DNA of 64,000 nt, taken from positions 862,164-926,163 of the forward strand of contig OZ241898.1 of NCBI GenBank assembly GCA_965203525.1. The letters run 5' to 3'. Each line of letters opens with the position of its first letter. Positions within the stretch are counted from its first letter, which is position 1. The position numbers were made by a program, and so were the translations under genes. This document shows, in pieces, positions 2,615 through 20,537 of this stretch. This DNA is from Vicinamibacterales bacterium (GTDB taxonomy: Bacteria; Acidobacteriota; Vicinamibacteria; Vicinamibacterales; UBA8438). The notes below the pieces were generated by a model. The model was not told where the DNA came from. It saw only the letters and a list, made by a program, of their open reading frames with translations, and did no database searches.

Positions 2615-2644
2615 TTGACAAGACGATCTGGCCGACTGTACGCT
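2615..2644 (+). promoter_or_regulatory. Possible sigma70 promoter
   Basis: TTGACA (2615-2620), 18 bp, then TACGCT, followed by a GGGGAGG RBS before the GTG at 2686. Confidence 0.35.
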
Positions 2645-2685
2645 GGGAGGCGTGCTGTCAAGGATTTTTGTGGGGGGAGGTCTGT

Positions 2686-3319: not shown

Positions 3320-3414
3320 TTCAGACCGCTGCGCCCGGCCGCTGCCGTGGGTGGTGAGGTCCTGGTACTCCGAAGCGCCGCCCCGCACCATTTCACCCCA
3401 TCCGTTCAGCCGTG

Positions 3415-3680: not shown

Positions 3681-3697
3681 TCCCTGCCCGCCGCCGC

Positions 3698-6600
3698 ATG
3701 ATCGACGCCGGCCGCCTGCTCGCCGACCTGAAGCGCCTGCGGGCGGACCTCGAAGACGACCTGCGCGTCCGGTGCGAGGAGCACCCGGACCTCGACCGCC
3801 CGCTGCGCGACGAGTACGACGCGGCGCACGCGGCCGGGCGGACCGCGCAGCCGTACGCGGTCTGGCGCGACGCGCGCCTGACGCAGATCGCCGCCGCGTG
3901 GCTGCTCGGCTGCGTCTTCGTCCGCTTCCTCGAAGACAACCGCCTCGTCGACCCGCCGCGCCTCTCCGGCCCCGGCGACCGCCGCCGGCGGGCGCTCGAC
4001 GAGCACACCCTCTACTTCCGCGCCCATCCGACCGACACCGACCGCGAATACCTGCTGCACGTCTTCCGGGAGGTCGCCGCGGTCCCGGCCGCCGCGCCGC
4101 TGTTCGACCCCGGCCACAACCCGATCGGGACGCTCGACCCGTCCGCGGACGCGGCGCGCCGGACGCTGCGTCCGTCGGGCGACGCGGCGGCGCGCCTGCT
4201 CGGGCTGTGGCAGCGGATCGACCCGGACGCGGGCGGCCTCGCGCACGACTTCACCGACCCGGAGCGGGACACGCGCTTCCTCGGCGACCTCTACCAGGAC
4301 CTCTCCGACGAGGCCCGCAAGCGGTTCGCGCTGCTCCAGACGCCCGCGTTCGTCGAAGAGTTCATACTCGACCGCACGCTGACGCCGGCCGTCGAGGAGT
4401 TCGGCTTCCGCGACGTGTGCCTGATCGATCCCGCCTGCGGGTCGGGGCACTTCCTGCTCGGCGCCTTCCGGCGGCTGGACGCGCGGTGGGCGCGGGACGA
4501 GCCGGGGACGAATCCGCGCGAGCGGGCGCGCCGGGTGCTGGCGCAGATCGCGGGCGTCGACCTGAACCCGTTCGCCGTTGCCGTCGCCCGCTTCCGGCTG
4601 CTGGTCGCCGCGCTGGGGGCGTCGGGGGTGGAGCGGCTCGCCGACGCGCCCGCCTTCGACGTCCGGGTGGCCGCCGGCGACGCCCTGCTGCACGGCCCGC
4701 GCCCCGGCCTGGAGGGCGCGCGGAAGCGCTACCTCGAAGCGGCGCCGGGGCCGCCCGCGCCGGGTGCGGACGGGACCGCCGCGGCCGGACCCGCCGCCGC
4801 CGCCGGCGACGCCAACGCGCGGATGACCGTCGCGCCGGGCGCGGACGGGGCCGCCGCGGCCGGTGCGCCGGACGCCGTCTTCGACGATCCGCTGGCACAC
4901 GTCTACCGCACGGAGGACGCCGGGGCGCTGCGCGCCATCCTCGGCGGGCGCTACCACGCGGTGGTCGGCAACCCGCCCTACGTCACGCCGAAGGACCCGG
5001 CCATCAACCGGGCGTACCGCGAGCGCTTCGACTCGTGCCACGGCAAGTATTCGCTGGCCGCGCCGTTCACCGAGCGCTTCTTCGACCTCGCCTTCGCGCC
5101 GCCGGCGGGCGCGGCGGAACCGGCCGGCTTCGTCGGCATGATCACCGCCAACTCGTTCATGAAGCGGGAGTTCGGCCGCAAGCTGATCGGGCGCGTCCTG
5201 CCGCGCCGGGACCTGACCCACGTCGTGGACACGTCCGGCGCCTACGTCCCCGGCCACGGGACGCCGACGGTGATCCTGTTCGGGCGCCCGCGCCCGCCGG
5301 TCGCCGGGACCGTGCGCACGGTGATGGGCGTCCGCGGCGAGCCGTCCACGCCGGAGGACCCGGCCGCGGGCCTCGTCTGGTCGGCGATCGTCGCGCAGAT
5401 CGACCGGCCGGGGTCGGAGAGCGCGTTCGTGAGCGTCGCCGACGTGCCGCGGGCGCGGTTCGCGCGGCACCCGTGGAGCCTCGGCGGGGGCGGGGCGGCG
5501 GAGTTGAAGGAACTGATCGACAAGGCGGGCGCCGGCGCGGCGGGCGGCGCGGGCGGAACGATGCTCCCGGTGGCGGGCAGCGGCAGCGCGGCACCCGGCG
5601 GCGCCGGCGTTGCAGGCGTGGCGGGCGTGGCGGGCGGAACGACGCTCGCCGCGGCGGGCAGCGATGGCGCGAAACTCGGCGTTGCGGGCGCTGCGGGCAG
5701 AACGGCGCCAAGCGGAAGACGGCGAGGATCGCCCGCTGCCGACGGCGCGGGCGATGCGGTCGTCGCTGGTGGAGCGACGCTTCCGGCGGCGGGCAGCGAC
5801 AGCGCGGTACTCGGCGGCGCGGGCGCTACGGGCGCGTCGGGTGGAACCACGCTCGGCGGAAGGCGGCGAGGACCGTCCGCTGCCGACGGCGCGGGCGCTG
5901 CGGGCGCCGCGGATGGAACGGCACTCCTGGCGGCGGGCAGCGACGGCGCGGAACTCGGCGGCGCCGGCACCGCGGTCGCGGCTGGCGGGACGACGCTCCC
6001 GGCGGCGGGCAGTGCTGGCGCGGCACCCGGCGGCACGGGCGTTGCGGTCGCCGCGGGTAAGGAAGGTATTCAGGCGGACAGGATGGTGCTCGGGACGTTG
6101 GCGGAGAGTATCGGAATAGCCGTGGCTACCGGAGAGGATGATCTGTTCGTGTTTCCCGATCGCGCGTCCATGGACAGGCTGCGAATCGAATCGGCCATGC
6201 CGCTCTTGACGGGCGACAGGATTCGTGATTGGTGTCAGGAAAGATCGAACCTCTCGATCTTCGTATATGACGAAAATTTCAAGGTCCAACCCCTCGATGT
6301 TCTCCCTGAAACCGGTAGTCTCCTCTGGCGGTTCAAGACGATGCTGTCAAGGCGACGCCCGTTCGGTATACCGATCATCGAACGCGGTCTTGCCTGGTAC
6401 GAATGGCAAGAGCTGTACAAGAAGAAACTCCGGACGCCGCTCTCCATCGCCTTCGCGGACATCAGCACGCACAACCACTTCGTGCTGGACCGCGGCGGCA
6501 AAGTCTTCAACCGCACTGCGCCGGTGATCAATTTGCCGGCGGAGGCCACCGAGGACGACCACCTCGGACTCGTCGGCCTGCTGAACAGCTCGACCGCGTG

Positions 6601-8353
6601 CTTCTGGATGAAACAGGTGTTTCACAAGAAGGGATTGGGCGAGAATTGGGAGCCGCGATACGCGCACGACGGCACGAAGCTGAAACAATTTCCGGTCCCC
6701 GCCGAACGCCCGCTCGCCCTCGCCCGCGCCCTCGACGACCTGGCCCGGGAGCGCGCCGACCTCCTCCCCGCCGCGATCGCCGCCCGCGGCGCGCCGACGG
6801 CCGACGCCCTGCGCGACGCCCGCGCCCGCGCCAGCGCGATCCGCGAGCGGATGATCGCGCTGCAGGAGGAGCTCGACTGGCGCTGTTACCACCTCTACGG
6901 CGTCACCGGCGACGACCTCTGCCTGCCGGCGGGCGCCCGCGCCGGCGCCGACCCGGCCGACGGCATCCTGTCGACGGCCGGCCCGCCAGCGGATGCGGGC
7001 GGATCTCCCGGCGCCTGGACCGCCCCGCCGACCGAACCGGTCCCGCTGCCGCCCGCGCAGGCGGACCCTCGGCGCCGTGCGCAGCAGGCAGATGAAGGTT
7101 CCGCCGCCGCCCGCGCGGCCGGACCATTCGGGGATCCGGACTGGAGCGAGACGCGGCGCCGCGAAGAGCGTCCCGCGGCCGCTACCCGGGCAGACGGACC
7201 GTCCGCGGGCGGCGGCGACGACCCGTACCTGCCCGCGGCCGCCGGCCGGGAGGTTCCGGACGTCCCCGCCGTCCGCCTCGGCGAGCGCGCCTTCGAGATC
7301 GTCCTCGCCCGCAAGTGCGCGGCGGGGGAAGTGGAGACGAAGTGGTTCGAGCGGCACGGCGCGGCGCCGGTCCCCGCCGTCCCGGACCGCTGGCCGGCGG
7401 CGTACCGCGCCCTGGTCGAGCGGCGCATCGCGGCCATCGAAGCGCAGCCCGCCCTCGCCCTGATCGAGCAGCCGGCCCACAAGCGCCGCTGGAGCGACGA
7501 GCCGTGGGAAGCGCAGCAGGAGCGGGCGCTGCGCGGCTGGCTGCTCGACCGGCTGGAGGCGCCCGCGCATTGGGCGGAGCCGCGCCTGACGACCGCCGCC
7601 GCGCTCGCCGACCGGATGCGCGAGGACGACGCGTTCCTGGCGGTCGCGGCGCTGCACGCCGAGCGGATCGACTTCGACGTGACCCGGCTCGTCGCCGACC
7701 TGGTGGAGGGCGCGAGCGTCCCGCTGCTGCCCGCGGTGCGCTGCACGCCGTCCGGGTTGCGCAAGCGGGCGGCGTGGGAGCGGACGTGGGACCTCCAGCG
7801 GCGGGAGGACGCCCTCGACGCGCGGACGGCCCTCCCGCCCGCCGACCCGGCGCGCCTGACGCCGGAGCGGGCCGCGGCGGCGAAGGCGCGCGACGTGGGC
7901 GCGATACCGGTCCCGCCCCGCTACGCCGCGGCCGACTTCCGCCGGGCCGCGTGGTGGCGGCTGCGCGGCAAGCTCGACGTGCCGAAGGAGCGCTTCTTCA
8001 GCCTGCCCGGCTGCGCGCGCGACGCCGACCCGTCGCTGCTCGTCGGCTGGGCCGGCTGGAACGCGCTGGCGCGGAGCCGCGCGGTGGCGGCGTGGCTCAT
8101 CGCACGCAAGGAGCAGGACGGCTGGCCGGCGGCGCGCCTGCTGCCGCTGCTCGCCGCCCTCCGCGAGCTGCTGCCGTGGGTGCGGCAGCGCCACAACGCG
8201 CCCGACCCGGACTACGGCGTCGGCATGGGCGACTACTTCGCGGGGTTCCTCGACGAGGAGGCGCGGGCGCTCGGCCTCTCGGACGACGCCATCCGCGGGT
8301 GGGCGCCGGCCGATACCCGGCGGCGCGGGGGCCGGCGGAAGGCGGCGCGGTAA
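3698..8353 (+). CDS. pglX: BREX type 2 adenine DNA methyltransferase PglX
   Basis: Motif I LIDPACGSGHFL and motif IV VVGNPPY. PglX-typical segments FLGDLYQDLS..ARKRFALLQTP, ITANSFMKREFG, PGHGTPTVIL, LQEELDW and WRLRGKLDVPKERF. Lies upstream of pglY/pglZ/brxD/brxHI. Confidence 0.93.
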   Translation: MIDAGRLLADLKRLRADLEDDLRVRCEEHPDLDRPLRDEYDAAHAAGRTAQPYAVWRDARLTQIAAAWLLGCVFVRFLEDNRLVDPPRLSGPGDRRRRALDEHTLYFRAHPTDTDREYLLHVFREVAAVPAAAPLFDPGHNPIGTLDPSADAARRTLRPSGDAAARLLGLWQRIDPDAGGLAHDFTDPERDTRFLGDLYQDLSDEARKRFALLQTPAFVEEFILDRTLTPAVEEFGFRDVCLIDPACGSGHFLLGAFRRLDARWARDEPGTNPRERARRVLAQIAGVDLNPFAVAVARFRLLVAALGASGVERLADAPAFDVRVAAGDALLHGPRPGLEGARKRYLEAAPGPPAPGADGTAAAGPAAAAGDANARMTVAPGADGAAAAGAPDAVFDDPLAHVYRTEDAGALRAILGGRYHAVVGNPPYVTPKDPAINRAYRERFDSCHGKYSLAAPFTERFFDLAFAPPAGAAEPAGFVGMITANSFMKREFGRKLIGRVLPRRDLTHVVDTSGAYVPGHGTPTVILFGRPRPPVAGTVRTVMGVRGEPSTPEDPAAGLVWSAIVAQIDRPGSESAFVSVADVPRARFARHPWSLGGGGAAELKELIDKAGAGAAGGAGGTMLPVAGSGSAAPGGAGVAGVAGVAGGTTLAAAGSDGAKLGVAGAAGRTAPSGRRRGSPAADGAGDAVVAGGATLPAAGSDSAVLGGAGATGASGGTTLGGRRRGPSAADGAGAAGAADGTALLAAGSDGAELGGAGTAVAAGGTTLPAAGSAGAAPGGTGVAVAAGKEGIQADRMVLGTLAESIGIAVATGEDDLFVFPDRASMDRLRIESAMPLLTGDRIRDWCQERSNLSIFVYDENFKVQPLDVLPETGSLLWRFKTMLSRRRPFGIPIIERGLAWYEWQELYKKKLRTPLSIAFADISTHNHFVLDRGGKVFNRTAPVINLPAEATEDDHLGLVGLLNSSTACFWMKQVFHKKGLGENWEPRYAHDGTKLKQFPVPAERPLALARALDDLARERADLLPAAIAARGAPTADALRDARARASAIRERMIALQEELDWRCYHLYGVTGDDLCLPAGARAGADPADGILSTAGPPADAGGSPGAWTAPPTEPVPLPPAQADPRRRAQQADEGSAAARAAGPFGDPDWSETRRREERPAAATRADGPSAGGGDDPYLPAAAGREVPDVPAVRLGERAFEIVLARKCAAGEVETKWFERHGAAPVPAVPDRWPAAYRALVERRIAAIEAQPALALIEQPAHKRRWSDEPWEAQQERALRGWLLDRLEAPAHWAEPRLTTAAALADRMREDDAFLAVAALHAERIDFDVTRLVADLVEGASVPLLPAVRCTPSGLRKRAAWERTWDLQRREDALDARTALPPADPARLTPERAAAAKARDVGAIPVPPRYAAADFRRAAWWRLRGKLDVPKERFFSLPGCARDADPSLLVGWAGWNALARSRAVAAWLIARKEQDGWPAARLLPLLAALRELLPWVRQRHNAPDPDYGVGMGDYFAGFLDEEARALGLSDDAIRGWAPADTRRRGGRRKAAR

Positions 8354-8373
8354 CCGCTCGGGGTTCGGCGGGA

Positions 8374-8424
8374 TGGAATGGCAACTGAAAAAGGGACCCT
8401 GCGGCCACGTGAAAAGGGACCCCC
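8374..8424. mobile_element. IS21-family-like terminal remnant
   Basis: TGGAATGGCAACTGAAAAGGGACCC-N10-TGAAAAGGGACCC: a TG start with two tandem copies of the sub-terminal motif, the layout of IS21 ends. No istA/istB nearby. Confidence 0.5.
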
Positions 8425-8582
8425 CGGTTTCCGTCAACAGGTCAATCGATGGCCTTCTGGGATGGGGAAGGACTTGATCTCTTCCCCCGGTCGCGTCACA
8501 CTCGTTTCGTACACCCCGGGTCCGCCTCTGCCTTCGGGTATGCGCCCGGGGTTTTGCTTTCGCCCGCCGGGGCGTGGCGGCT

Positions 8583-8951
8583 CTACCTCGCCCACTCACG
8601 CGCCTGCTTTCTCATCTCCTCGCGGGTCAGTCCCAGGATCTCCGCGGCGCGCCCGAGCGAGATGCGCTGTTCTTCGACCGCCCGCCGCACGAGCCGCGGC
8701 AGGCGGTCCTCCGGGAAATCGTGCCGGGAAAGCCCCGCGGGTTCTCCCGGGGTGACCAGCTCGCCGACCGGCGCGGCGAGGGCCGCCGCCAGATCGGAGA
8801 GGGTCCGCGCCCGCGGCACGACCGTCCCGCGCTCGATCTTTCCGAGCGCCATCCGCGAGATGCCGGCCCTGGCGGCAAGCTGATCCTGCGTCAGTCGCCG
8901 CTCCAGACGCAGCCGGGCGATGTTGGCGGCGATGCGGGCGGCGTCGGCCAT
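8583..8951 (-). CDS. XRE-family HTH protein, probably an internally deleted XRE-ImmA/IrrE (M78) gene
   Basis: RBS GGGAGG. HTH_3 'IARLRLERRLTQDQLAARAGISRMALGKIERG' is joined almost directly to the tail 'LVRRAVEEQRISLGRAAEILG' typical of XRE-M78 proteins. No HExxH motif. Confidence 0.65.
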   Translation of the reverse strand: MADAARIAANIARLRLERRLTQDQLAARAGISRMALGKIERGTVVPRARTLSDLAAALAAPVGELVTPGEPAGLSRHDFPEDRLPRLVRRAVEEQRISLGRAAEILGLTREEMRKQAREWAR

Positions 8952-9157
8952 CGGTGCCTCCCTCGTTGACGGCGCCGCCACGATAGCATCATTTCTACAA
9001 CTTTTGGAATTGGTAAATCATCTGCCGACGACGAAACACGGGCGCCCGGCCTGTCCACCCGACGCTCGACTCCGGCGCGGTTCGACATGCTGCCGGCTGG
9101 CGGGGACGGCGGTCTGCCGTGCGTCACCGGCGGCACTTGGCGATGAGCGCGCGCACG

Positions 9158-9376
9158 TCACGGCCATTCGCGCCGGCGGTGGCGCTCGTACTGCAGGCCA
9201 TCGAGGTTGCGGTCTCGCCAGAGGCCGAAAACGTCGTCGCCGTCGCGCACGTGCCGCGCATCCAGGTAGTCGGCGACGGCGCGGCGGATGACCTCGGCGC
9301 GGGACACACCCTCGCGCCGGCAGACGTCGGCCAGTTGCCGCAACTGCTCCTCGGGAAGTTCTATGACCGTCCGCAT
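9158..9376 (-). CDS. CopG/RHH VapB-type antitoxin (orphan)
   Basis: MRTVIELPEEQLRQLADVCRREGVSRAEVIRRAVADYL...FGLWRDR..DGLQYE..RREW has a ribbon-helix-helix pattern and a VapB-like tail. No intact PIN gene follows. Confidence 0.75.
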   Translation of the reverse strand: MRTVIELPEEQLRQLADVCRREGVSRAEVIRRAVADYLDARHVRDGDDVFGLWRDRNLDGLQYERHRRREWP

Positions 9377-9410
9377 GGCATGTGACGTCGGCGTATGGTG
9401 ACGAAATCGT

Positions 9411-9710
9411 ATGTTCCGGGGGCGCCGGGCGGCAAGCCGCTGGAGCGCGGTGGTGGTGGTGGTGGCGGCGGTGGTGGTCACGTTGATCGTGACGCTGATC
9501 GGGCAGCGCATCGACGACACCAACCGGCGCATCGACGATGCGAACCGGCAGTTCGAGGCGAGCCGGGAGGCCATCGAAGCGAACCGGCGGGCCATCGAGG
9601 CCAACCGGGAAGCCATCGAAGCCAACGGGCGGCGCATCGACGAGCGGTTCGACGCGCTGCAGGCCCTGATCCTTGAAGCGCTCGAAGCGCGCCGCGCACA
9701 GGCCGACTAG
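9411..9710 (+). CDS. Small membrane-anchored coiled-coil protein
   Basis: Hydrophobic stretch AVVVVVAAVVVTLIVTLI followed by heptad repeats (RIDDxNR, AIEANRx). Confidence 0.6.
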   Translation: MFRGRRAASRWSAVVVVVAAVVVTLIVTLIGQRIDDTNRRIDDANRQFEASREAIEANRRAIEANREAIEANGRRIDERFDALQALILEALEARRAQAD

Positions 9711-12094
9711 CCGCGGCGTCGGCGTCGTGCCATAGCCTTTCGAATGTCGCGGGCAACCTCCTCGACCTCCCGCGCCACCCGCGACTCGATTCCGAGCTCC
9801 CGTTCCAACGCTACCAGGAGAGGCTGCAGCAGCGTTGCGGAACGCGACCCCGCGATCAGATCGTGCATGCGCTCCGGCCCGAGCTTGACGCTGAGGTTCA
9901 CGAGGGCTTCGATAGCCCCCCCGGGCAGCGTGTCGAGTTCCGGGAGGATCGCGAGACTCGCCCCGACGTCCTGCTCGCCCGCCGATCGGTCCCCTTCCGC
10001 AAGAGCCGCTGCCGCCCGAATCAGATGGCCGAGCCAGCGGTGCCGCCACTTGGCGCCGCACCGATCGAGCAACTGGTCAACGGTCTGGATGGCTGCCTTG
10101 AACTGCTGGCCTGCGACCTCCAGATGTCCCTTGAAGAGGCGAGCATCTGCAACAATCTCGACTAGGCCCGGCGCCCGACTCGTCCCGAAGCGGCGCACCA
10201 CCTCGTTATACGCCGCCAGCGCATCATCCGGTCGTTGCAAGGTGTCGAGGGCGAGTCCCTTGTTGATGAGTGCGTTCGCGACCATATCCTGAAGAGCAGG
10301 CGTTTCGCTCATCTCAAGGCGGAGCACCTCGTCGCACACTGCCACCGCATCATCCGGTCGTTGCAAGGCACGCAAGGCACTCATTTTGTTTACGAGTGCC
10401 TTCGCGACTGCTTCCTGAAGAACCGGCGTTTCGCTTTTTCCGAACCGGCACACCATTTCGTCGCACGCTGCCACCGTATCATCCGGCCGCTGCAAGGCAA
10501 AGGAGATAACCCCTTTGTTGAAGAGCGCCATCGAGACATTTTCCTGAAGAACCGGCGTTTCGCTCGTTCCGAAGCGACGCACCACATCGTCGCAGGCGGC
10601 TATCGCGTCGTCCGGCCGCTGCAGATTGTGCAGTATGGCCCCCTTGTTGACGAGTGCCTTTGCGACCCACTCCTGAATAGCGGGATCCTCGCTCTCTCCG
10701 AACAAAAGCACCATTTCCTCACACGCGGCCAGGGTCTTCTCGTCAGGCGTTTCCGATTCGGACAGTATGATCCTCGTCTTGCAGAGCTTCTCGGCCGCCC
10801 GCCGAAATTCCGCGGGCATCTTCTTCTTCATCGACTCCATCAACCGTGCAAATGCGGTTTGGTGGAGCGCCTGCGTCTCCGGGTCCGGGCGAACGATATC
10901 GCTGACCATGCGCGCGCCGATGTCCATCAATTCACGCGGCGAATAGTACGACTCCATGAAACGGACAAGGGCTTCGACGAGATGGTCCGGTCCACGCCGG
11001 CGGCGCAGCAGGTAGTAGATGTTGTACAAGCGCTCGGTCAGGTAGTACCGCTTGCGTCTGGCGCTGCCGCCCGCTACCTGGACCACGCCGCGCTCGCCGA
11101 GACGTGCGAGCTGGGCGCTGCACTGGCTGGGGTCGAGCCGGGCGTGCTCCGCGACTTCCCGCGCGGCGGCCGGCTTCCACAGCGCGGCGAGCGCGAGATA
11201 GACGCGGCGTTCCTGCGCGGGGAGCGATTCGAGATGGTTCTTGAAGTATTCCGTGTGATCGTCGACCAGATCGAGCAGATCGGCCATCAGCTCCCGGAAC
11301 GACCGCCCGGCGCCGAAGCGGGCGACGATCGCGATCAACCGCGGACTGCCGCCGGTGAGGATTTCCAGCGAACGCACCGTTTCGCGCGCGACGGGGCGGT
11401 CGGCCGCCGCTTCCCAGAGCACGGCGCACTGGTCCGTGTCGAGCGGGCGCAGCGTGCGGACTACGAAAAGGTCGTACAGGGCGCGGTCCGGGCTGTCGAT
11501 CTCGTCGAAGCGGCTGGTCGCGCTCGCGAACAGGATGATTCGCGGTTCGGTCTGCAGGACCTTCCGCAGCCGCCAGCCCGCGTCCCGGTCCGCCATGTCC
11601 CTGAACAGCATGTTCAGGTTCTCGACCAGCAGCAGGAGCCGCTGGCCGCGCCGGTCCGCGAAATCCAGCAGCGCGCCGAGACAGCGTTCGCCCAGATCCC
11701 GGTCGTCGCGGATGGCGCGCAGCTCGCCGACGGTGCGGTCGAGGTCGGCCTCGTCTTCCCGATACGGCGCCGCCTGGGCGGCCAGGTGCGTCAGGCACTC
11801 CAGCCAGAACTCTCCCGCGGAGGAGACCTCGTAGCTCTCTTCCGGGAAGACGACCGGGAAGCAGTGCGCGGCCAGCGCGGCGTCCCGGCGCGCCTCGGCC
11901 GCGACGCGCAGCAGCAGGCTCGTCTTCCCGCTGCCGCGCGGACCGATCACGATCTGGTGCGGATTCGAAGCTCCGGTGCACTCGCGCAGGTTCTCGACGA
12001 GCATTTCGAACTCCGTCGTTCGTACGCAGAACGACGCCACCAGCTCGTCGTCGGTGAGGAAACCGGGGTTGTACTTGCGAATGGAAACGGCCAT
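9707..12094 (-). CDS. P-loop ATPase (STAND-like) - winged HTH - TPR protein
   Basis: Walker A GPRGSGKT, Walker B-like LLLLVEN, GxP motif TGGSPR, wHTH 'LPAQERRVYLAL...AREVAEHARL', and about four ~44-aa TPR-like repeats (VAKALVNKG...QRPDDA.AACD.VV.RFG.SETP). Confidence 0.8.
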   Translation of the reverse strand: MAVSIRKYNPGFLTDDELVASFCVRTTEFEMLVENLRECTGASNPHQIVIGPRGSGKTSLLLRVAAEARRDAALAAHCFPVVFPEESYEVSSAGEFWLECLTHLAAQAAPYREDEADLDRTVGELRAIRDDRDLGERCLGALLDFADRRGQRLLLLVENLNMLFRDMADRDAGWRLRKVLQTEPRIILFASATSRFDEIDSPDRALYDLFVVRTLRPLDTDQCAVLWEAAADRPVARETVRSLEILTGGSPRLIAIVARFGAGRSFRELMADLLDLVDDHTEYFKNHLESLPAQERRVYLALAALWKPAAAREVAEHARLDPSQCSAQLARLGERGVVQVAGGSARRKRYYLTERLYNIYYLLRRRRGPDHLVEALVRFMESYYSPRELMDIGARMVSDIVRPDPETQALHQTAFARLMESMKKKMPAEFRRAAEKLCKTRIILSESETPDEKTLAACEEMVLLFGESEDPAIQEWVAKALVNKGAILHNLQRPDDAIAACDDVVRRFGTSETPVLQENVSMALFNKGVISFALQRPDDTVAACDEMVCRFGKSETPVLQEAVAKALVNKMSALRALQRPDDAVAVCDEVLRLEMSETPALQDMVANALINKGLALDTLQRPDDALAAYNEVVRRFGTSRAPGLVEIVADARLFKGHLEVAGQQFKAAIQTVDQLLDRCGAKWRHRWLGHLIRAAAALAEGDRSAGEQDVGASLAILPELDTLPGGAIEALVNLSVKLGPERMHDLIAGSRSATLLQPLLVALERELGIESRVAREVEEVARDIRKAMARRRRRG

Positions 12095-12098
12095 CGCG

Positions 12099-13352
12099 TC
12101 ACGCTCCGGACCGCGGCACGCGCTTCTCGACGGAAACGAAGTGCCGTCCGTGGCGGGCGCGCCACCAGTCTTCCAGCAGCCCCGACACGAAGCGGTAGCC
12201 GTCCTGCTGCGCTTCCAGATACCCGTCGTGCTCGAGCACGCGGAGCACGTCTTCGATCGGGACCGTGCCGGCCGCCCGGTTCCGGAAGTAGTCGCGGTAC
12301 CGATCGATGGCGCCGTGCTTCAGTACGCCGCGGTTCGCCGCCGCTTCGGTCAGCAGGTCGAGCGCGTCGCGACAGCCCTCCGGTCCGAGGACCAGCTTCA
12401 GCCGGCTCTCGTAGTGGTCCATGTCCGCCTGTCCGCGCACGCCGAGCATTTCGGCCGTGTAGACGCGCGCGACGTCGGCGGGCGTTGCGCTCCGCGTGCC
12501 GGCCAGGCGCAGGTCTTCGTCCAGGCTGTCGAAGAAGCGCTGCACGTGGTGCGGCACCAGGCACCGCAGCCGGCGGCACATTTCCTGGCGCGCGGCGAGG
12601 GGCAGGTCGAGGCCGCGGCCTTCGGCGAGCGCGGCGAGACAGTCCAGGGCGGTCTGCTCGTTCCAGGGCTTCAGATCGAAGGGCGAGAAGATGTTCGCGT
12701 GGGCGCTGAGATTCGCCTGCCGCAGGATCGGTTCCAGGCCCACGCTGCCGGAGGCGATCAGGCATATTCTGCCCCGGTGTTCCTGGCCGTTCCGGCGCAA
12801 CCAGCTCAGGAACTCGTCGACGGCCCGCTTCCCCTCCGGTGTGATGCGGTAGTCGTCGTCCTTCAGCATCCGGTTGACGAGGATCGGCAACTCGTCGATC
12901 GCCAGCACGACCGGCCGATCGCTCTCGGCCAGAGCGGCGAAGACCTCGTCGCCTTTCTGCCGCCAGCTTCCGGCGTCGATTCCCGCCCGCAGCTTCACGC
13001 GCACCTCGGCGACGGACACCGTCTCGATCCGCTCGCCGACGTTGGCGAACAGGGACTTGATTCGGGACCACGCGCGCTGCGCAGGCTGCGACTGAAACGC
13101 GATCTCCGCAACGGCGTCCGCCGCGGAGCCGGCGTCTTCCAGATCGACGAACACCGTCTGGAAGTCGCCGTCGGCCGACAGGCGGCGCAGCAACTCCCGC
13201 ACCAGACTCGTCTTGCCCATCCGCCGTTGCGCGGTCAGCAGCGTGTGGGTCCCGTTGCGCACCCGGTCCGCGAGCAGGTCGAGCTCGGCCTGCCGGTCGA
13301 AGAAGCGCTCTCCCTCGACCCAGTTCGACCCTGCCTTTTTCAACCCCGCCAT
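12099..13352 (-). CDS. P-loop ATPase (AAA/archaeal-ATPase-like)
   Basis: FFDRQAEL, Walker A TAQRRMGKT, Walker B LAIDELP. Ends 4 bp upstream of the ATPase-TPR gene. Confidence 0.8.
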   Translation of the reverse strand: MAGLKKAGSNWVEGERFFDRQAELDLLADRVRNGTHTLLTAQRRMGKTSLVRELLRRLSADGDFQTVFVDLEDAGSAADAVAEIAFQSQPAQRAWSRIKSLFANVGERIETVSVAEVRVKLRAGIDAGSWRQKGDEVFAALAESDRPVVLAIDELPILVNRMLKDDDYRITPEGKRAVDEFLSWLRRNGQEHRGRICLIASGSVGLEPILRQANLSAHANIFSPFDLKPWNEQTALDCLAALAEGRGLDLPLAARQEMCRRLRCLVPHHVQRFFDSLDEDLRLAGTRSATPADVARVYTAEMLGVRGQADMDHYESRLKLVLGPEGCRDALDLLTEAAANRGVLKHGAIDRYRDYFRNRAAGTVPIEDVLRVLEHDGYLEAQQDGYRFVSGLLEDWWRARHGRHFVSVEKRVPRSGA

Positions 13353-13375
13353 GGCTGGCCTCCCAACAACACTGC

Positions 13376-13551
13376 TGCCATCGATTCCGTTGCCATCGAT
13401 TCCGTTGCCATCGATTCCGTTGCTATCGATTCCGTTGCTATCGATTCCGTTGCCATCGATTCCGTTGCCATCGATTCCGTTGCCATCGATTCCGTTGCTA
13501 TCGATTCCGTTGCTATCGATTCCGTTGCCATCGATTCCGTTGCCATCGATT
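13376..13551. repeat. 15-bp tandem repeat (TGCYATCGATTCCGT), 11 full copies + partial
   Basis: Directly visible. The only variation is C/T at position 4. Confidence 0.97.
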
Positions 13552-13821
13552 TTGATGGCAAACGAATGAGGAAGTCAAGCCGCGCGGCGCGTCCCTCCTC
13601 GGGACCGCGCCGGTCCGTTCCCCGGGATGCGGTCCAGCCCGGTGATGCGGACCGGCTCGACGTCCGGTCGGGCGTCGATGCCGCTCCCGGGCCGGACGGG
13701 TAGAATGGCGCCGGCATCAGGAACCCGTGACCAGGACCGACCGGCGGCTGCCGACCCGCGTCGTGCTGCGCAACTGCAAGAGCATCGTCTCGACCGCCGA
13801 AGGCCGCGGAGAGACGCCGGC

Positions 13822-16800
13822 ATGACGCTGCTGCGCGACCTGATCGACGTCCCCGAGCGGGTCCACCGCGACGACTTCGTCCTGCGCCTGTCGGAGGGGG
13901 TGGACCGGCCGGAGGAGACGCTTCGCGACTACGTGGTGACGCCGCAGCTCGCCGGCGCCTTCGACCGGGCGCTCCACCTGATCCGGGCCGCGCTCGACTC
14001 CGGATCGAGCAAGGCGGCGTACCTGCACGGGAGCTTCGGCAGCGGCAAGAGCCACTTCATGGCGGTGCTGCACCTGCTGCTCCAGCAGCACCCGGCGGCC
14101 CGCGCCGCCGAGGGGCTCGAAGCGGTCGTCACCCGCCACGACGACTGGCTCGCGGGCCGCCGGTTCCTTCTGGTGCCGTACCACCTGATCGGCCAGCCGA
14201 GCTTCGAGGCGGCGGTGCTGGGGGGCTACGCCGCCCGGGTCGCCGCGCTCCATCCGGACGCGCCGGCGCCGGGCGTCTACCGGGCGGAAGGGCTGTTCGC
14301 GGACGCCCGCCGCCTGCGCGCGCAGCTCGGCGACGAGGCCTTCTTCGCGCAGCTCGACGGCGCCGGGCGGCCCGCCGGCGCCGGCGGCGGCTGGGGCGAT
14401 CTGGCCGGGCGGTGGGACGCGGCGGGCTTCGAGGCGGCGCTCGCGGCGCCGGGGGACGCCGAGGCGCGCGGCCGGCTGGTCGGGGCGCTGGTCGACGCCT
14501 TCTTCCGGAGCTACCGCGACGTGGTGCGGGGGAGCGGGGCGGCGTTCGTGCCGCTCGACGACGGGCTGGCGGTCATGGCCCGGCACGCGCGCGATCTCGG
14601 CTACGACGGGCTGGTGCTCTTTCTGGACGAGCTGATCCTGTGGCTCGCCACCCACGCCGCCGACCTGGCGTTCCTGAACGCCGAGGGTCCGAAGGTGTCG
14701 AAGCTGGTGGAGGCGGAGGCGGCCGGCCGGCCGATCCCGATCGTCAGCTTCGTGGCGCGGCAGCGCGACCTGCGGGAGCTGGTGGGGGAGCAGGTGACGG
14801 GGGCCGAGCAGCTCGGCTTCGCCGACGTCCTGCAGTGGTGGGAGGCGCGCTTCGAGCGGATCGTGCTGGAGGACCGCAACCTGCCGGAGATCGCCGCCCG
14901 GCGGCTGCTCCGCCCGCGCAGCGACGCGGCGCGCGAGGCCGTCGACCGCGCCTGGGCCGACACGGAGCGGGTCCGGCGGGAGGTGTTCGAGACGCTGCTG
15001 ACGCCGCGCGCCGACCGCGCCACGTTCCGGCGGGTGTATCCCTTCAGCCCGGCGCTGGTGGAGACCCTGATCGCTGTTTCCGGGCTCCTGCAGCGGGAGC
15101 GGACCGCCCTGAAGGTGATGCTGCAACTGCTGGTGGAGCGGCGGGAGACGCTCGCCCTGGGGGAGATCGTCCCGGTGGGCGATCTGTTCGACGCGATCGC
15201 CGAGGGGGACGAGCCGTTCACCGAGGGGATGCGGCACCACTTCGAGCACGCCCGCGGCCTCTACCGGCGGAAGCTGCTGCCGCTGATCGAGCGCCAGCGC
15301 GGCGTCACGAAGGCGGAGGCGGCGGAGCGGCCCCCGGACGACGGCGCGGCGCGCGCCTTCCGCGCCGACGACCGCCTCGTCAAGACGCTGCTGCTCGCGG
15401 CGCTGACGCCGGAGGTGGAGGTGCTGAAGCACCTGACCGCGACCCGGCTGGCGGCGCTCAACCACGGGTCGATCCGGACGCCGATCGAGGGGCGGGAAGG
15501 GCAGGAGGCGCTACGCCGCTGCCGCGCGTGGGCGGCCGAGGCCGGCGAGGTCCGGATCGGCGACGATCCGGCCGATCCGACCATCGCGCTGCAGCTTTCG
15601 GCCGTCGACACCGAGGGGATCCTCGCCAACGCGGACCGCCACGACAACTCCGGGAACCGCCGGCGCAAGGTCCGCGAGGTCCTGTTCGCCGAGCTGGGCG
15701 TCGAAGACCGCAACGAGCTGCTGCTGCGCCACGCGATCGAGTGGCGCGGCGTCGAGCGCGGCTTCGAGCTGATCGTCGCCAACGTGCGGGAACTGCCGGA
15801 CGAGTCGCTGGCGACGCGGGGCGACGGCCGGAAGGTGATCGTCGACTTCCCCTTCGACGAGCCGGGCCGCACCCCGGCCGACGACGCCGCCCGCCTGGAC
15901 GCCTGGCGCGAACGCGGGGACCGGGCGCGGACGCTGGTCTGGCTGCCGTCCTTCCTGAGCGCGGCGGCCCAGCGCGATCTCGGCACGCTGGTGAAGATCG
16001 ACCACCTGCTGGCGGGTGAGCGGCTGCGCGACCACGCGGCGCACCTGTCGCCGGTGGACCGGGCGTCGGCGCGCGAGATCCTGCGGAGCCGGCAGAACCA
16101 GCTCCGGCAGCGTCTGGCGCGCCATCTGGAGGAGGCCTACGGCGTGGAGACGCCCGCGTCCGGATCGGTCGAGCCGGGCCACGCCCCGGCGGCGCGTTTC
16201 CGGTCGCTCGATCCGGCGTTCGATCCCCGGCCGCCGGCGCGGGCGAACCTGCGCGAGGCGTTCGCGGACCTGCTCGGCCAGATGTGCGCCAGCCAGTACC
16301 CGGGGTGTCCGGAGTTCGGCGCTCCGCTCCGGCCCGCCGCCCTGCGACGGGTGCACGAGCAGGTGTCGCGGGCGGTGCAGGCGCCCGAAGGGCGGGTCGC
16401 CGTCGACAAGCCGCTCCGCCCCCTGATGACGCAGATCGCCGTCCCCTTGCGGCTCGGCGAGATGGGGGAGACCCACTTCGTCATCGGCCGCCACTGGTTC
16501 GCCTGCTTCGACCGTCTGGACGAGCCGCTGACGGTGGCGAAGCTGCGCGCGGCGATCGACGAACCGCGGCGGACGGGGCTGCCGGACGCGGCGCGCAACC
16601 TCGTCCTGCTGGTGTACGCGGATCAGGCGAACCTCGCGTTCCGGCGGCACGGGGGGCCGTGGCGGGCGTCGCTCGACGACCTGCCGGACGACCTGGAGCT
16701 GCGCGCGGAGGAGCTGCCGGCGCCCGACGTCTGGGAACGGGCCGTGGACTGCGCCGGGCGCGTGTTCGGGGTGGCGGCGTCGCCGCTCCGCAACGCGCGC

Positions 16801-17607
16801 AACGCGGGCGCGCTCGCCGACGCGCTCGACGAAGTCGCGGCGCGCGCCGGCGACTGCGACGCGCTGGCCGCGCGGCTGGCGGACGTGACCGCGGAACTCG
16901 CCGTCGCCGGGACCGACGCCCGCCGCCTCCGCACGGCGCGCGCGACCGCCGCCCTCGTCCGCTCGCTGGGCGCCCGGCGCGGGGCGGCGCGGGTCGCCGC
17001 GCTGGCGGAGGTCGAGGCGGAGACGTCCTGCGAGGCGATGGCCAGGAGCTTCCGCGGGGCGCAGCAGATGCGGGAGGCGCTCGACCGGACCAAGTGGGCG
17101 CTCTTCGCATCGATCGCGCGGCTGACGGACGCCCGCGCGGACGCCGCGCAACGTCTCCGGCGGGAGCTGGCCGAGGCGGTGGCCGCGGACGAATACGTGG
17201 CGCCGCTCGCTCAGCGGCTCCCGGCGCTCGAAGACCGGGCGATCGCCCTGCTGTCCGCTCCGCCGGCGCCGGTTCCTCCGCCGGAACCGCGGACACCCCC
17301 GCCGCCCGCGCCGCCGGGCGGTCCGCCGCCGGTGACGCCGGCGCCGGATCCCGGCGTCGCGCCGCCGCGGCGCACGTCGGACAGGAACGCGCCGTCCGCA
17401 CGGGAGTACCCCCCGCACCCCGTTGCAGGCGGCGTGCCCGATCGCCCGCCGGACGGAAGCGTGGCGGTCGCGCCGGAAGGCGCCCGCGAGGAGCTGGATC
17501 TCGATCGGCTGCGGACCGTGACGGCGGGTCTGGAGGCGCTGCTCGCCCGCGACCCCGCCGCGCGGATCCGGATCAGCTGGAAGGTCCGGGGCGGGGAGAA
17601 TCCGTGA
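13822..17607 (+). CDS. pglY: BREX type 2 ATPase PglY
   Basis: MTLLRDLIDVPERVHRDDFVLRL start, Walker A HGSFGSGKSH, LFLDELILWL, SFVARQRDL, YPFSP, LQRERTALK. GTGA overlap with pglZ. Confidence 0.92.
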   Translation: MTLLRDLIDVPERVHRDDFVLRLSEGVDRPEETLRDYVVTPQLAGAFDRALHLIRAALDSGSSKAAYLHGSFGSGKSHFMAVLHLLLQQHPAARAAEGLEAVVTRHDDWLAGRRFLLVPYHLIGQPSFEAAVLGGYAARVAALHPDAPAPGVYRAEGLFADARRLRAQLGDEAFFAQLDGAGRPAGAGGGWGDLAGRWDAAGFEAALAAPGDAEARGRLVGALVDAFFRSYRDVVRGSGAAFVPLDDGLAVMARHARDLGYDGLVLFLDELILWLATHAADLAFLNAEGPKVSKLVEAEAAGRPIPIVSFVARQRDLRELVGEQVTGAEQLGFADVLQWWEARFERIVLEDRNLPEIAARRLLRPRSDAAREAVDRAWADTERVRREVFETLLTPRADRATFRRVYPFSPALVETLIAVSGLLQRERTALKVMLQLLVERRETLALGEIVPVGDLFDAIAEGDEPFTEGMRHHFEHARGLYRRKLLPLIERQRGVTKAEAAERPPDDGAARAFRADDRLVKTLLLAALTPEVEVLKHLTATRLAALNHGSIRTPIEGREGQEALRRCRAWAAEAGEVRIGDDPADPTIALQLSAVDTEGILANADRHDNSGNRRRKVREVLFAELGVEDRNELLLRHAIEWRGVERGFELIVANVRELPDESLATRGDGRKVIVDFPFDEPGRTPADDAARLDAWRERGDRARTLVWLPSFLSAAAQRDLGTLVKIDHLLAGERLRDHAAHLSPVDRASAREILRSRQNQLRQRLARHLEEAYGVETPASGSVEPGHAPAARFRSLDPAFDPRPPARANLREAFADLLGQMCASQYPGCPEFGAPLRPAALRRVHEQVSRAVQAPEGRVAVDKPLRPLMTQIAVPLRLGEMGETHFVIGRHWFACFDRLDEPLTVAKLRAAIDEPRRTGLPDAARNLVLLVYADQANLAFRRHGGPWRASLDDLPDDLELRAEELPAPDVWERAVDCAGRVFGVAASPLRNARNAGALADALDEVAARAGDCDALAARLADVTAELAVAGTDARRLRTARATAALVRSLGARRGAARVAALAEVEAETSCEAMARSFRGAQQMREALDRTKWALFASIARLTDARADAAQRLRRELAEAVAADEYVAPLAQRLPALEDRAIALLSAPPAPVPPPEPRTPPPPAPPGGPPPVTPAPDPGVAPPRRTSDRNAPSAREYPPHPVAGGVPDRPPDGSVAVAPEGAREELDLDRLRTVTAGLEALLARDPAARIRISWKVRGGENP

Positions 17608-20537
17608 CCCCGGCGCCGTCCGCGGCGCAGGTGCGCGCGCAGGCGCAGGCGGTCCGCGACCGCTACCCGGAGGCGCGCGTCATCGGGATCCAGGCGCCGG
17701 CGTGCGGCGGTCCGTTGCCGGCGGTCCGCCTCGGCGCGGACCGCGCGCCGCTCGTCCGTTGCGACTCGGTCCTCGCCCTGCGCGAACGGCTCGTGGACCT
17801 GCCGGCCGGCGGTCCCCCGCTGGTCGTGCTCACCGGCCTGCCGCGGGACGAGCTGGGCGCCGACCTGCTGGCGCGGCTCGCCGGCGGGAAGCTGTTCCGG
17901 ATCGATCCCTGGCAACTGGTGAAGGCGCGCTGCGGAGCGCGCGCCGTCGACCCGCGTCTGGTCGAGCGCGGGGAAGAGCAGTCCTGGATCGCGCGGGCGC
18001 TCCTCGACACGGAGCCGGAGGCGGGCTACCCCCGCGCGCCGAGCGGGTTCCTGGCGGCGGAGACCGTCTGGCGCCATCTGTTCGAGACGCTCGCCGGCAT
18101 CCCGCGGGGCGAGCGGGACCCGGACGCGTTGCTCGCGTGGGCGCTGGCGGGGACGCCGCGGGAGACCCTGGCGGCGCTGCCGGAGGAGACGCGGGCGGGA
18201 CTGGCCGCCGCCGTCGAGGCCGGCGCCGGCCGGACGGCCCGCGTGCTGTTCGAGACGGCGGGCCGGATCGGCCGCGAAGCGGTCTCCGTCGGACTCGTGG
18301 CGGGCGTTCTGTTCGAGGCCGGGGGCGACGAACGGGCCGCGAAGGCGCGCGGCAAGCTCGAAGCGCGGCTCGGACTCGAGGAGCTGGACGCGGCGCTCGC
18401 GGGCCGGTGGACCGCCGCCGCCGCGCGGGTGCTGCGGCGCTGCCGGGCGCGCACCGGGGATCCGCCCGCGGCGCCGGCCGCCGTCCCGGCGGTGCTCGCC
18501 GGCGCCGATGCGCTGCTGCGGGAGCTGGGCGCCGGGGAACTGGCGTGGCGCAGCGCGATGCTGCCGGCGTCCCTCGATCAGCGTCTGGCCCGGTTCGCGC
18601 GGGAGCTGGCCGGGTTCGTCGACGGCGGCGCGGCCGGGGTTCCGGACTCGTTGCGCGCCGCGGGCCTCGAGGTGCTGGAGCACCGGCTCGCCGCGGACGA
18701 CGCGCGGCGCACCGCGGGCGTCGAGATGGCCCTGCGGCTGGCGGGCTGGCTGGCGCGGCGCCGCCGCGCCGGGGCGGGCCCGCCGCGCGGGTTCGGCGCG
18801 GCCGCCCGCGCGTACCGCGCCGAGGGGAGCTTCGTCGACCAGGCGCGCGCGCGCCTCTGGGACGGCGACGCTTCGCCGCCGCTCGCGGACGCCTGCGCCC
18901 GGCTGGCGCGGCGCGCGGACGAGGCCCGGCAGGAAGAGAACCGCGCGTTCGGCGCGCTGCTGGCGTCCTGGCCGGGGACCGGCGCGCACGACCGCGATCT
19001 GCTCGGGGTGGAAGAAGTCCTGGCGCGCCGGGTCGCGCCGCTCGCGAAAGTCCATCCGGTGCTGGTGCTGGTCGTCGACGCGATGAGCCTGCCGGTCTTC
19101 CGGGAGCTGGAGCACGATCTGGCGCGGCGCGGCTGGGTCGAGCTCCTGGCGGACGACGCGCCGGCCGGCGACGCGGCGCCGGCGCGGCCGACGGTGATCG
19201 CCGCCCTGCCCACGGTGACCGAGGTCTCCCGCACCAGCCTGCTGTGCGGCCGGATCACGTCCGGGAACGCGGCGACCGAGAAGGCGGGCTTCGCCGGGCA
19301 CGCGGGCCTCCGCGCGGCGGGCGGAGCGCAGGCGCCGCCGGTGCTGTTCCACAAGGGCGACCTGCGGGAAGCGGGCGCCGCGGGCCTCGCGACGGGCGTG
19401 GGCGCGGCGCTCGCGGACCCCGGCCAGCGGGTCGTCGGCGTGGTGATCAACGCCGTCGACGACCACCTGGCCAAGGGCGATCAGGTGCGCGTCCCCTGGA
19501 CCGCCGGCCACGTCCGCCCGGTCGAGGAACTGCTGGAGCGCTGCCGCGCCGGCGGGCGCGCCGTCGTGCTGGTGAGCGACCACGGGCACGTGATCGAGCG
19601 GGAGACGGAAATGCGCGCCGGGGACGGCCCGGAACGCTGGCGGGAGGCGGCCGGCCCGCCCGCCGCCGACGAGGTGCTGATCTCGGGGCCGCGCGTCGTC
19701 GCCCCCGGCCGGCGTCTGCTGGCGCCGTGGAGCGAGCGCGTCCGCTTCGGCATGAAGAAGAACGGCTACCACGGCGGCGCGGCGCTGCAGGAGGTGGTGC
19801 TGCCGCTCGGCGTCTTCGCGCCCCCGGACGCCGTGGCGCGCGTCGCCGGCTGGCGCGAGGTCCGCCCCGAGGCCCCCGGCTGGTGGGACTGGCGGAGCGA
19901 ACCGCTTCCGGCGTCCGCCGCCGCTGCGCCCGCGTCCGTGTCGCCGCCCCGGAGGTCGGTGGCGGAGGGGGAACCGCTTCCGGCGTCCGCCGCCGCTGTG
20001 CCGGATCCGGCGCCGGCGCTCCACGATCACGTCGTTGGCCGACCGCCCCACCGCGTTCATGCCGCCGTTGCGCCGGATCCGGCGCCGGCGCTCCACCCGG
20101 GGCCCGGGCCGGCGCGCCGCGCGGCCCGCCCGGGCGAGACCGGCGACCTGTTCGCCCTGCCGGAGCCGGAGCCTCCGCTGTCCCCGTCGGCGCCATCCCC
20201 GTCGGCGCCGAGTCGAGGAACCTGGATCGATCGGCTCTTCGCCACCGAGCAGTTCGCGGCGCAACGCCGGCGGGCGGCCCGCGCCGCGTTGTCCGACGAG
20301 CGAATCCGAATCATCCTGACCGCGCTCGACGCACGGGGCGGCACGCTGACCCGGGCCGCGCTGGGCACGATCCTCGGCGTGCCCGCCTTCCGGCTCGACG
20401 GCATCCTCTCCGCCCTGCGGCGGATCCTGAACGTCGACGGCTACGACGTGCTCGCCGTCGACGACGCGTCCGAGAGCGTCACCCTGAACCGCGGCCTGCT
20501 CCTCGTCCAGTTCGACGTCGACAGGAACCGGACGTAG
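17604..20537 (+). CDS. pglZ: BREX type 2 phosphatase-domain protein PglZ
   Basis: Alkaline-phosphatase-like motifs LVVDAMS, ALPTVTEVSRTSL, NAVDDHL, VSDHGH, GYHGG. C-terminal 'LRRILNVDGY' wHTH. GTG start overlaps the pglY stop. Confidence 0.92.
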   Translation: MTPAPSAAQVRAQAQAVRDRYPEARVIGIQAPACGGPLPAVRLGADRAPLVRCDSVLALRERLVDLPAGGPPLVVLTGLPRDELGADLLARLAGGKLFRIDPWQLVKARCGARAVDPRLVERGEEQSWIARALLDTEPEAGYPRAPSGFLAAETVWRHLFETLAGIPRGERDPDALLAWALAGTPRETLAALPEETRAGLAAAVEAGAGRTARVLFETAGRIGREAVSVGLVAGVLFEAGGDERAAKARGKLEARLGLEELDAALAGRWTAAAARVLRRCRARTGDPPAAPAAVPAVLAGADALLRELGAGELAWRSAMLPASLDQRLARFARELAGFVDGGAAGVPDSLRAAGLEVLEHRLAADDARRTAGVEMALRLAGWLARRRRAGAGPPRGFGAAARAYRAEGSFVDQARARLWDGDASPPLADACARLARRADEARQEENRAFGALLASWPGTGAHDRDLLGVEEVLARRVAPLAKVHPVLVLVVDAMSLPVFRELEHDLARRGWVELLADDAPAGDAAPARPTVIAALPTVTEVSRTSLLCGRITSGNAATEKAGFAGHAGLRAAGGAQAPPVLFHKGDLREAGAAGLATGVGAALADPGQRVVGVVINAVDDHLAKGDQVRVPWTAGHVRPVEELLERCRAGGRAVVLVSDHGHVIERETEMRAGDGPERWREAAGPPAADEVLISGPRVVAPGRRLLAPWSERVRFGMKKNGYHGGAALQEVVLPLGVFAPPDAVARVAGWREVRPEAPGWWDWRSEPLPASAAAAPASVSPPRRSVAEGEPLPASAAAVPDPAPALHDHVVGRPPHRVHAAVAPDPAPALHPGPGPARRAARPGETGDLFALPEPEPPLSPSAPSPSAPSRGTWIDRLFATEQFAAQRRRAARAALSDERIRIILTALDARGGTLTRAALGTILGVPAFRLDGILSALRRILNVDGYDVLAVDDASESVTLNRGLLLVQFDVDRNRT

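Follow-up and report, generated by a model that had tools for sequence, protein, structure and literature searches.

A mobile two-gene ATPase cassette with its own operator in the cargo slot of a BREX-2 locus: a candidate NLR-like sensor/helper module

The systems closest to the locus described here belong to the STAND (signal transduction ATPases with numerous domains) NTPases. Kaur, Iyer, Burroughs and Aravind (2021, eLife; PMC8195603) describe a mobile two-gene operon, nSTAND2, in which an active and an eroded STAND NTPase are predicted to form a hetero-multimer; a GT4 or HEPN effector is joined to the inactive partner, whose NTP-binding motifs are eroded. Avs (AVAST) proteins are single polypeptides that join an effector domain, an NTPase, a winged helix and a sensor resembling tetratricopeptide repeats (TPR), and the published STAND tree comprises 589 clades (PMC13581612). 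Defence systems embedded in bacteriophage exclusion (BREX) loci, among them BrxU/GmrSD, PARIS and Shedu, are likewise documented in PMC12839542 and 10.1101/2024.01.29.577857. We analysed a stretch of 64,000 nt (the window; GC content 72%) from a Vicinamibacterales bacterium (GCA_965203525.1, contig OZ241898.1, positions 862,164–926,163 of the forward strand), in which a cassette of two adjacent ATPase genes lies between the BREX-2 genes pglX and pglY. On balance we lean, by a narrow measure, towards reading this cassette as an autoregulated, mobile defence module with the sensor/helper logic of nucleotide-binding leucine-rich-repeat (NLR) receptors of the STAND class, housed in a cargo slot of the BREX-2 locus.

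Gene 1 (P0002; 12099–13352, minus strand) encodes a 417-aa ATPase, the small protein, and gene 2 (P0001; 9707–12094, minus strand) a 795-aa STAND/ORC (origin recognition complex)-like NTPase, the large protein. Both are open frames, separated by 4 bp and antisense to the flanking pglX and pglY, exactly as the original prediction, made from the letters of the DNA, had placed them. GC content at third codon positions (GC3) is 0.90 in the 417-aa gene and 0.80 in the 795-aa gene, values that genuine genes should show in a genome of 72% GC.

The two genes are an obligate unit and are inherited together. With one genome scanned per species, small-ATPase relatives (47–82% identity) turned up at 80 loci, all in metagenome-assembled genomes and including Vicinamibacterales, Latescibacterota, Binatia, Dehalococcoidia/SAR202, Gemmatimonadota, Arenicellales and others. 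Every one of the 80 has a large-protein relative that starts within ~70 nt downstream of the small-ATPase gene, so that the homologue survey bears out the obligate pairing that had been proposed. Two of these 80 partners are cut by contig ends, and ~5 appear truncated or frameshifted by open reading frame (ORF) calls that were not inspected individually. Moreover, the two NTPase modules diverge from their window counterparts in step with each other (r = 0.94 over 73 loci, a descriptive value only as the loci are mutually related). Clustering of the flanking ORFs revealed no conserved third gene: no additional gene occurs in >8 of the 80 loci, and the flanks are variable.

Relatives that are 57–82% identical occur in Acidobacteriota, Latescibacterota, Binatia, Chloroflexota, Gemmatimonadota, Proteobacteria and Spirochaetia. 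More distant ones (23–26% identity) are found on plasmids of Clostridium estertheticum and Moraxella osloensis, where the overlapping small-ATPase/large-NTPase layout is retained; the annotated products are 'ATP-binding protein' plus 'tetratricopeptide repeat protein' in one case and two hypothetical proteins in the other. The small-ATPase family as a whole comprises 1,829 clusters (50% identity) at E ≤ 1e-3 and 251 at E ≤ 1e-30, and its listed members are nearly all stand-alone proteins of ~400–420 aa. Closer to home the distribution is patchy. The source genome has a single cassette copy, and a small-ATPase match (E ≤ 1e-20) is present in 10 of 201 genomes of the order, the source genome included, and in 6 of 16 genomes of its own family, at varied genome places in both sets. 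To judge from this pattern, the cassette is most likely autonomous and horizontally mobile. In some genomes the cassette, or its large protein, is present twice (L052 14965–17370; L001 and L031, from one genome; L006 and L012, likewise from one genome); duplicates within one genome differ in their repeat arrays, and one L012 copy is frameshifted.

The small protein, originally noted as a 417-aa P-loop ATPase, appears from its motifs to be a strongly conserved ATPase of the ATPase_2 type whose Walker A and B sequences are canonical. In 24 aligned sequences neither Walker A (TAQRRMGKTS) nor Walker B (VVLAIDELP) varies. Against Pfam the protein scores 31.2 bits with ATPase_2 (PF01637; cut-off 33.2) and 30.5 bits with AAA_22 (cut-off 27). 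A 49-member profile of the small ATPases matches the archaeal Walker-type ATPases 2qen (1.7e-9) and 2fna (2.9e-8) in the Protein Data Bank (PDB), and single-sequence PDB searches with the cassette proteins returned P-loop matches only. PDB 6mfv (PH0952) was absent from the PDB sequence matches at E ≤ 1. The C terminus of the small protein (LEHDGYL...FVSGLLEDWW), read by eye from the alignment, may also be winged-helix-like.

The large protein is divided into a switch half and a repeat half: an NTPase with its helical domain (aa 1–285), a MarR-like winged helix (~aa 286–360), a linker, five TPR-like repeats of 43 aa and a conserved C-terminal cap (aa 635–795). All the elements originally noticed in it, Walker A, a GxP motif, a winged helix-turn-helix (HTH) and TPR, are present. 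Walker A (GPRGSGKTS), Walker B (LLLLVENLN) and the GxP motif (GGSPR) are invariant in 20 aligned sequences, and G249, P251 and R252 of the last remain invariant even in relatives of 19–27% identity. The Walker B had been described as atypical, with VEN rather than DE. VEN is indeed invariant, but a profile–profile alignment places E158–N159 of the large protein opposite D153–E154 of the small one, so that EN here stands where DE would be expected: an acidic residue is kept and the catalytic glutamate is replaced by asparagine. The same acid–asparagine arrangement (VEN or IDN) is retained in the plasmid relatives of 19–27% identity, with VER in one relative. The NTPase modules of the two cassette proteins are themselves weakly homologous (hhalign E 6.7e-4).

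The large protein matches AAA_16 (40.4 bits; cut-off 32.6), and the curated STAND models all score below their cut-offs (NACHT 18.1 against 26.7, nSTAND1 21.1 against 27.1, nSTAND5 24.0 against 34); its Moraxella relative exceeds the NACHT cut-off (30.2 against 26.7 bits). The winged helix matches the MarR-type DNA-binding regulators 2fa5 (E 4e-4) and 1ku9 (E 6e-4), and scores 23.9 bits with TrmB, slightly below the cut-off of 25.6. By its predicted domain order the large protein thus has a STAND-like anatomy, in which a P-loop NTPase, a GxP helical domain and a winged helix are followed by C-terminal repeats.

The repeat half behaves quite differently from the switch half. Tandem Repeats Finder reports a period of 129 bp at 10191–10677, and the low-GC block of 129-bp (43-aa) units that forms the putative sensor extends over 10191–10705 on the minus strand, with five repeats starting at aa 464, 507, 550, 592 and 635. 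The TPR-like repeats of the original prediction are hence real, with TPR_1 at 47.7 bits and TPR_12 at 37.8 bits, although the period is 43 rather than ~44 aa and the units number five. The lower GC noted for this part holds too: it is 0.56–0.60 over 10100–10999 against 0.66–0.72 elsewhere in the two genes, and it reaches synonymous sites, as GC3 falls from 0.89 in the NTPase part to 0.68 in the repeats. Among 73 partners of at least 650 aa the number of units detected ranges from 0 to 19 (median 7), and partner length follows unit number closely (r = 0.96). In the nearest homologues identity is 93–96% in the NTPase part and 93–99% in the winged helix, and it falls to 54–77% in the repeats, 55–76% in the linker and 55–78% in the C-terminal cap. 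The variation in unit number, the drop in identity and the drop in GC3 together support an exchangeable, fast-evolving sensor half on a constant switch half, in agreement with the exchangeable sensor region that had been postulated.

A TPR protein in such a bacterium could also be imagined to serve in host interaction, as a 'eukaryote-like' protein of a sponge associate: runs labelled as sponge metagenomes contain 24–37% of the sampled words of the stretch, and TPR repeats are at hand. We give this idea scarcely any credence. No secretion signal was noticed on reading the sequence by eye (no predictor was used), the protein with the TPR array invariably comes with an ATPase of cytoplasmic type and an operator, and relatives reside on Clostridium and Moraxella plasmids.

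The cassette carries its own control region. In the 275-bp intergenic region between gene 1 and pglY, a tandem-repeat search finds 11.7 copies of a 15-bp unit, which on the operon strand reads GATGGCAACGGAATC, at 13376–13551 (minus strand; 97% matches). This array lies between the ribosome-binding site of gene 1 and a promoter-like site at 13549–13578 on the same strand (TTGACT, 18 nt, CAAAAT; a consensus match only). Relatives have, at the same position, 2–4 palindromes GTTG(G/C)CAAC at 15-bp spacing that extend between a TTGACA −35 element and the ribosome-binding site, the final unit there being GTTGGGAG; in most related loci the operator units have this TTGACA −35 upstream of them. Palindromic GTTGNCAAC sites at 15-bp spacing span the cassette promoter and ribosome-binding site and travel with the cassette. 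The association was quantified in 160-nt windows upstream of gene 1, compared with control windows from the same loci: at least one TTGNCAA occurs in 70 of 79 upstream windows against 578 of 19,905 controls, and a TTGNCAA pair at 15 or 30 nt in 41 of 79 against 4 of 19,905. In the plasmid relatives the promoters are surrounded by direct or inverted repeats that differ from these.

In the window copy the middle operator unit has been amplified ~12-fold, compared with the 2–4 units found elsewhere, and this probably alters expression or repressor titration. Contigs from three runs join across the array, X1 skipping 191 bases, X3 175 (with 24 other letters between) and X8 137, and contigs also join across the TPR units; these joins fit shorter arrays in other strains and equally well a collapse of tandem repeats in short-read contigs. 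Since operator and genes have crossed phyla as one, the simplest assumption is a reader that the cassette itself encodes, for which the large protein's MarR-like winged helix would be the first-choice candidate. The conserved operator and the DNA-binding, MarR-like type of the winged helix are both new relative to the original prediction.

These features suit an ordinary signal-sensing transcription regulator as well. STAND transcription regulators of the MalT, AfsR and LAL types combine an ATP-switch NTPase with a repeat sensor and act at direct-repeat promoter sites; they have a dedicated LuxR- or SARP-type DNA-binding domain and defined regulons. A regulator of this kind would bind a small molecule or protein through its TPR, and its ATP-driven oligomers would occupy repeated sites in a role unrelated to immunity. 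The MarR-like winged helix, the direct-repeat operator sites at the promoter, a TPR sensor in proteins for which no effector domain was found, and the non-defence neighbours at about half of the loci all speak for it. Against it, the paired motif occurs nowhere else in the 5.34-Mb source genome, so that the cassette's own promoter is the sole paired site, and no target or neighbour gene is conserved in the 80 loci. The patchy, cross-phylum distribution, the rapidly varying sensor and the residence in defence cargo slots point the same way, and we consider a plain regulator unlikely.

Iteron-like repeats beside an ORC-like ATPase raise a further alternative, a selfish maintenance or replication-type module with initiators of the ORC/Cdc6 kind, or an addiction module. 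The 15-bp direct repeats and the plasmid-borne copies would fit, as would weak ORC/Cdc6-type matches (PF24389, 27.2 bits at a cut-off of 27 and over residues 6–69 only; ORC4, E 1e-3). The repeats, however, overlie the −35/−10 region and the ribosome-binding site, as an operator does, and the orc1/cdc6 model TIGR02928 reaches 15.4 bits against a cut-off of 181.3. Moreover, the pair has no conserved neighbour of the integrase, relaxase or replication type, and the Clostridium plasmid has a separate annotated replication initiation protein. We regard a maintenance module as decidedly improbable.

We then asked what the pair resembles among catalogued defence proteins, using Pfam, PADLOC-DB v2.0.0 and NCBIfam 20.0. 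A match to an already named system would have spoken against the original prediction; none of the three libraries gave a specific one. Among named and candidate defence systems the best scores were ~20 bits for mad8 and 18.5 bits for DS41_1 (cut-off 370), and no PDC or HEC model of PADLOC v2 matched the pair better than E ~0.01. Avs models gave no PADLOC match at E ≤ 1, and NCBIfam Avs4 reached only 13 bits, to a distant relative. The plasmid relatives likewise had no specific match in PADLOC or NCBIfam, and their four RefSeq accessions were not found in the available portion of the supplementary tables of PMC13581612. No description of the pair was found in the literature, PDC lists beyond PADLOC v2 lying outside the scope of the search.

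The surroundings of the related loci are often rich in defence genes, as had been expected. Defence or mobile-element Pfam families were found among the ≤4 nearest large ORFs at 14 of 28 loci (no matched control set), including DUF1156/DUF499/SNF2, AAA_15/21, GmrSD_N, ResIII with a methylase, PD-(D/E)XK, PIN, Fic and TrwC, families that we take to be of defence or mobile-element type. Of 30 additional loci, 7 gave PADLOC matches at E ≤ 1e-10, in 11 of the 86 ORFs (again no matched control set); these neighbours are Dsr1, Dsr2, JetA, type IIG and type I restriction–modification systems, AbiE and an AriB-like protein. The Moraxella copy adjoins a Qat system.

In the window the neighbours are BREX genes, and it had been suggested that the pair perhaps signals to BREX or guards it; a guard would sense BREX inhibition. 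The position between pglX and pglY, divergent from pglY and with a common intergenic region, would suit such an accessory, and back-up systems embedded in BREX loci are on record in the sources cited above. The wider comparison goes against it. The BREX proteins of the window have no match within 10 kb in any of the 80 related loci, and the pair is thus not a BREX component; in two relatives, G015 and G117, BREX-2 and the pair or its homologue are both present but far apart; and the same slot in relatives holds unrelated cargo. We hold the suggestion to be very improbable.

What the BREX-2 locus provides is a place. It is complete: pglX, the BREX-2 methyltransferase gene (3347–8353, plus strand; PADLOC PglX 1534 bits), and pglY/brxC (13627–17607, plus strand; BrxC-PglY 1500 bits), which is divergent from gene 1, flank the slot and are followed by pglZ (17604–20537; 816 bits), brxD (20644–22038; 673 bits) and brxHI (22041–24188; 958 bits). 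An absence of pglW from this BREX-2 was considered and dismissed, as the gene was found 12.5 kb upstream of pglX; it lies intact outside the window (G000:C1:848616–853013; 1561 bits), and the locus is complete for that reason. DNA similarity to the relative G117 ends at 8272 and restarts at 13813, which delimits a variable cargo slot (8272–13813) that holds the cassette and two small DNA-binding genes. PglY of this type is present in 6 of 201 genomes of the order, the source genome counted. The junction comparison comprised G037, G117, G085 and G028, with G015 left out, and in three of the four the pglX–pglY junction is filled with other defence or toxin–antitoxin genes: an MNT plus HEPN pair in G117 (L091 2114–2915), a 1711-aa PDC-S37/Hhe-like gene in G085 (L093 12005–17140) and PDC-S37, SoFic and PsyrT/PsyrA in G028 (L094 1675–10714). 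The junction of G037 is cargo-free (~0 bp). The pglX–pglY slot is a clear integration hotspot for defence genes in the order, and it illustrates how defence loci gather further systems.

A second cargo region of ~12.5 kb occupies the pglW–pglX junction (G000:C1:853013–865510; in the window from <1 to 3346), so that both BREX-2 junctions of the source genome bear cargo. It contains Septu (PtuA 474 bits, PtuB 241 bits), PDC-M38A/B (729 and 47 bits), together with a gene resembling 2OG-Fe(II) oxygenases. Just upstream of pglX, at ~2442–2513, lies a 24-aa remnant that matches the PglW C terminus and suggests an insertion with duplication of the pglW 3′ end.

The two small genes that share the slot with the cassette are downstream of the pair and on the same strand. 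One encodes a 132-aa XRE-type HTH protein (8583–8981, minus strand; HTH_3 48.2 bits), the other ORF a ribbon-helix-helix protein (9158–9637, minus strand; RHH_1 31.6 bits) whose domain sits at aa 89–126, for which reason the true gene is probably shorter. They may form a small regulator or antitoxin-like pair. In the 80 related loci the ribbon-helix-helix ORF has no match, and the XRE gene is not conserved with the cassette.

PglX itself is longer in this genome, with 1668 aa against ~1240–1310 aa in relatives, from which residues ~725–913 and ~1194–1301 are missing. The part of pglX considered here is 5520–6650. The first of these extra segments consists of in-frame 72/144-bp tandem repeats (5621–6058). 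A dip in GC to 0.56–0.60 at 6050–6650 covers the part of pglX that aligns worst with relatives (42–51%), and this part may be the target-recognition region. Arrays of 72-bp period occur at 1364–1512, 3414–3676, 5621–6058 and 34702–34961, some of them within coding sequence, and a 64-bp unit is repeated three times (90% matches) at 24207–24396, where the BREX-2 locus ends, immediately downstream of brxHI.

Taken together, obligate pairing, cross-phylum spread, conserved motifs, sensor variability, the operator and the defence context argue for a mobile STAND module. In the reading that we lean towards, a winged helix encoded by the cassette, most likely that of the large protein, would bind the operator and repress the operon. 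The large protein would act as a sensor that binds ATP and hydrolyses it poorly, and its repeat array would recognize an invader protein. Recognition would then drive ATP-dependent assembly with the small 'helper' ATPase, which has the complete catalytic set, into a hetero-oligomer. No known domain explains the output; if we had to guess, the module would act on DNA by way of its winged helices and the helper ATPase.

The reading can be sharpened into an effector-free sensor/helper NLR pair, in which a hydrolysis-dead, hypervariable TPR sensor recruits an invariant helper, as in NAIP–NLRC4 or paired plant NLRs, and the hetero-oligomer acts on invader or host DNA via MarR-type winged helices, by ORC-like loading or promoter occlusion; the same helices would silence the cassette at the 15-bp-spaced operator, whose copy number (12 against 2–4) would tune the trigger threshold. 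In this specific form we hold it to be doubtful.

Several observations weigh against a defence module of this kind. No effector family was found for either protein in Pfam, PADLOC or NCBIfam, and separate scans of the C-terminal ends (145 aa in the large protein, 181 aa in the small) gave no effector match either. At about half of the related loci the neighbours are all metabolic or unannotated, and the neighbourhood counts stand without a matched control for enrichment. The winged helix and the operator fit a plain regulator equally well, and both the hetero-oligomer and the operator-binding protein are putative. Complex prediction for aa 1–400 of the large protein with the small protein gave a median of 0.19 (mark, 0.32), which speaks neither for nor against binding. 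Of the effector-less sensor/helper ATPase pair originally put forward, the missing effector (in the libraries searched), the obligate pairing and the STAND-like anatomy stand; signalling to BREX, or guarding it, is not supported.

Were the cassette defensive, it would represent a widespread immune module of a new kind, to judge from the 1,829 small-ATPase clusters. NLR logic would here be split into a variable sensor and a constant helper with no known killing domain, which would bear on STAND receptor signalling and on the origin of sensor/helper pairs. Experiments could take hold at once at the conserved operator. New in this window are the setting in a BREX-2 slot and the 12-fold array of operator units.

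Compared with what has been described, the self-contained systems embedded in BREX loci resemble the cassette in being placed between core BREX genes; the published catalogue is centred on nuclease effectors, and the word TPR has no occurrence in PMC12839542. The archaeal ATPase_2 proteins 2qen and 2fna share with the small ATPase the N-terminal FFDRE...GKTS signature, but they are structural-genomics entries of unknown function for which no TPR–NTPase pairing is described. With the STAND regulators the cassette has in common an ATP-switch NTPase, a repeat sensor and direct-repeat DNA sites at promoters; it differs in that its only conserved site is its own promoter. Avs proteins, as described in PMC13581612, show the same NTPase, winged helix and large variable TPR-like sensor and the same patchy, horizontally transferred distribution near defence genes, whereas the cassette consists of two NTPase genes in which no fused effector was found. 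The nearest described system would be the nSTAND2 two-gene operon; the family of that name is absent from the Pfam matches. Both are mobile and consist of two adjacent NTPase genes, one with an impaired nucleotide motif, and for both a hetero-multimer is predicted. In contrast to the inactive nSTAND2 partner described in PMC8195603, the large protein of the cassette keeps its Walker A and lacks only the catalytic glutamate, and it carries a TPR sensor where no GT4 or HEPN domain was found.

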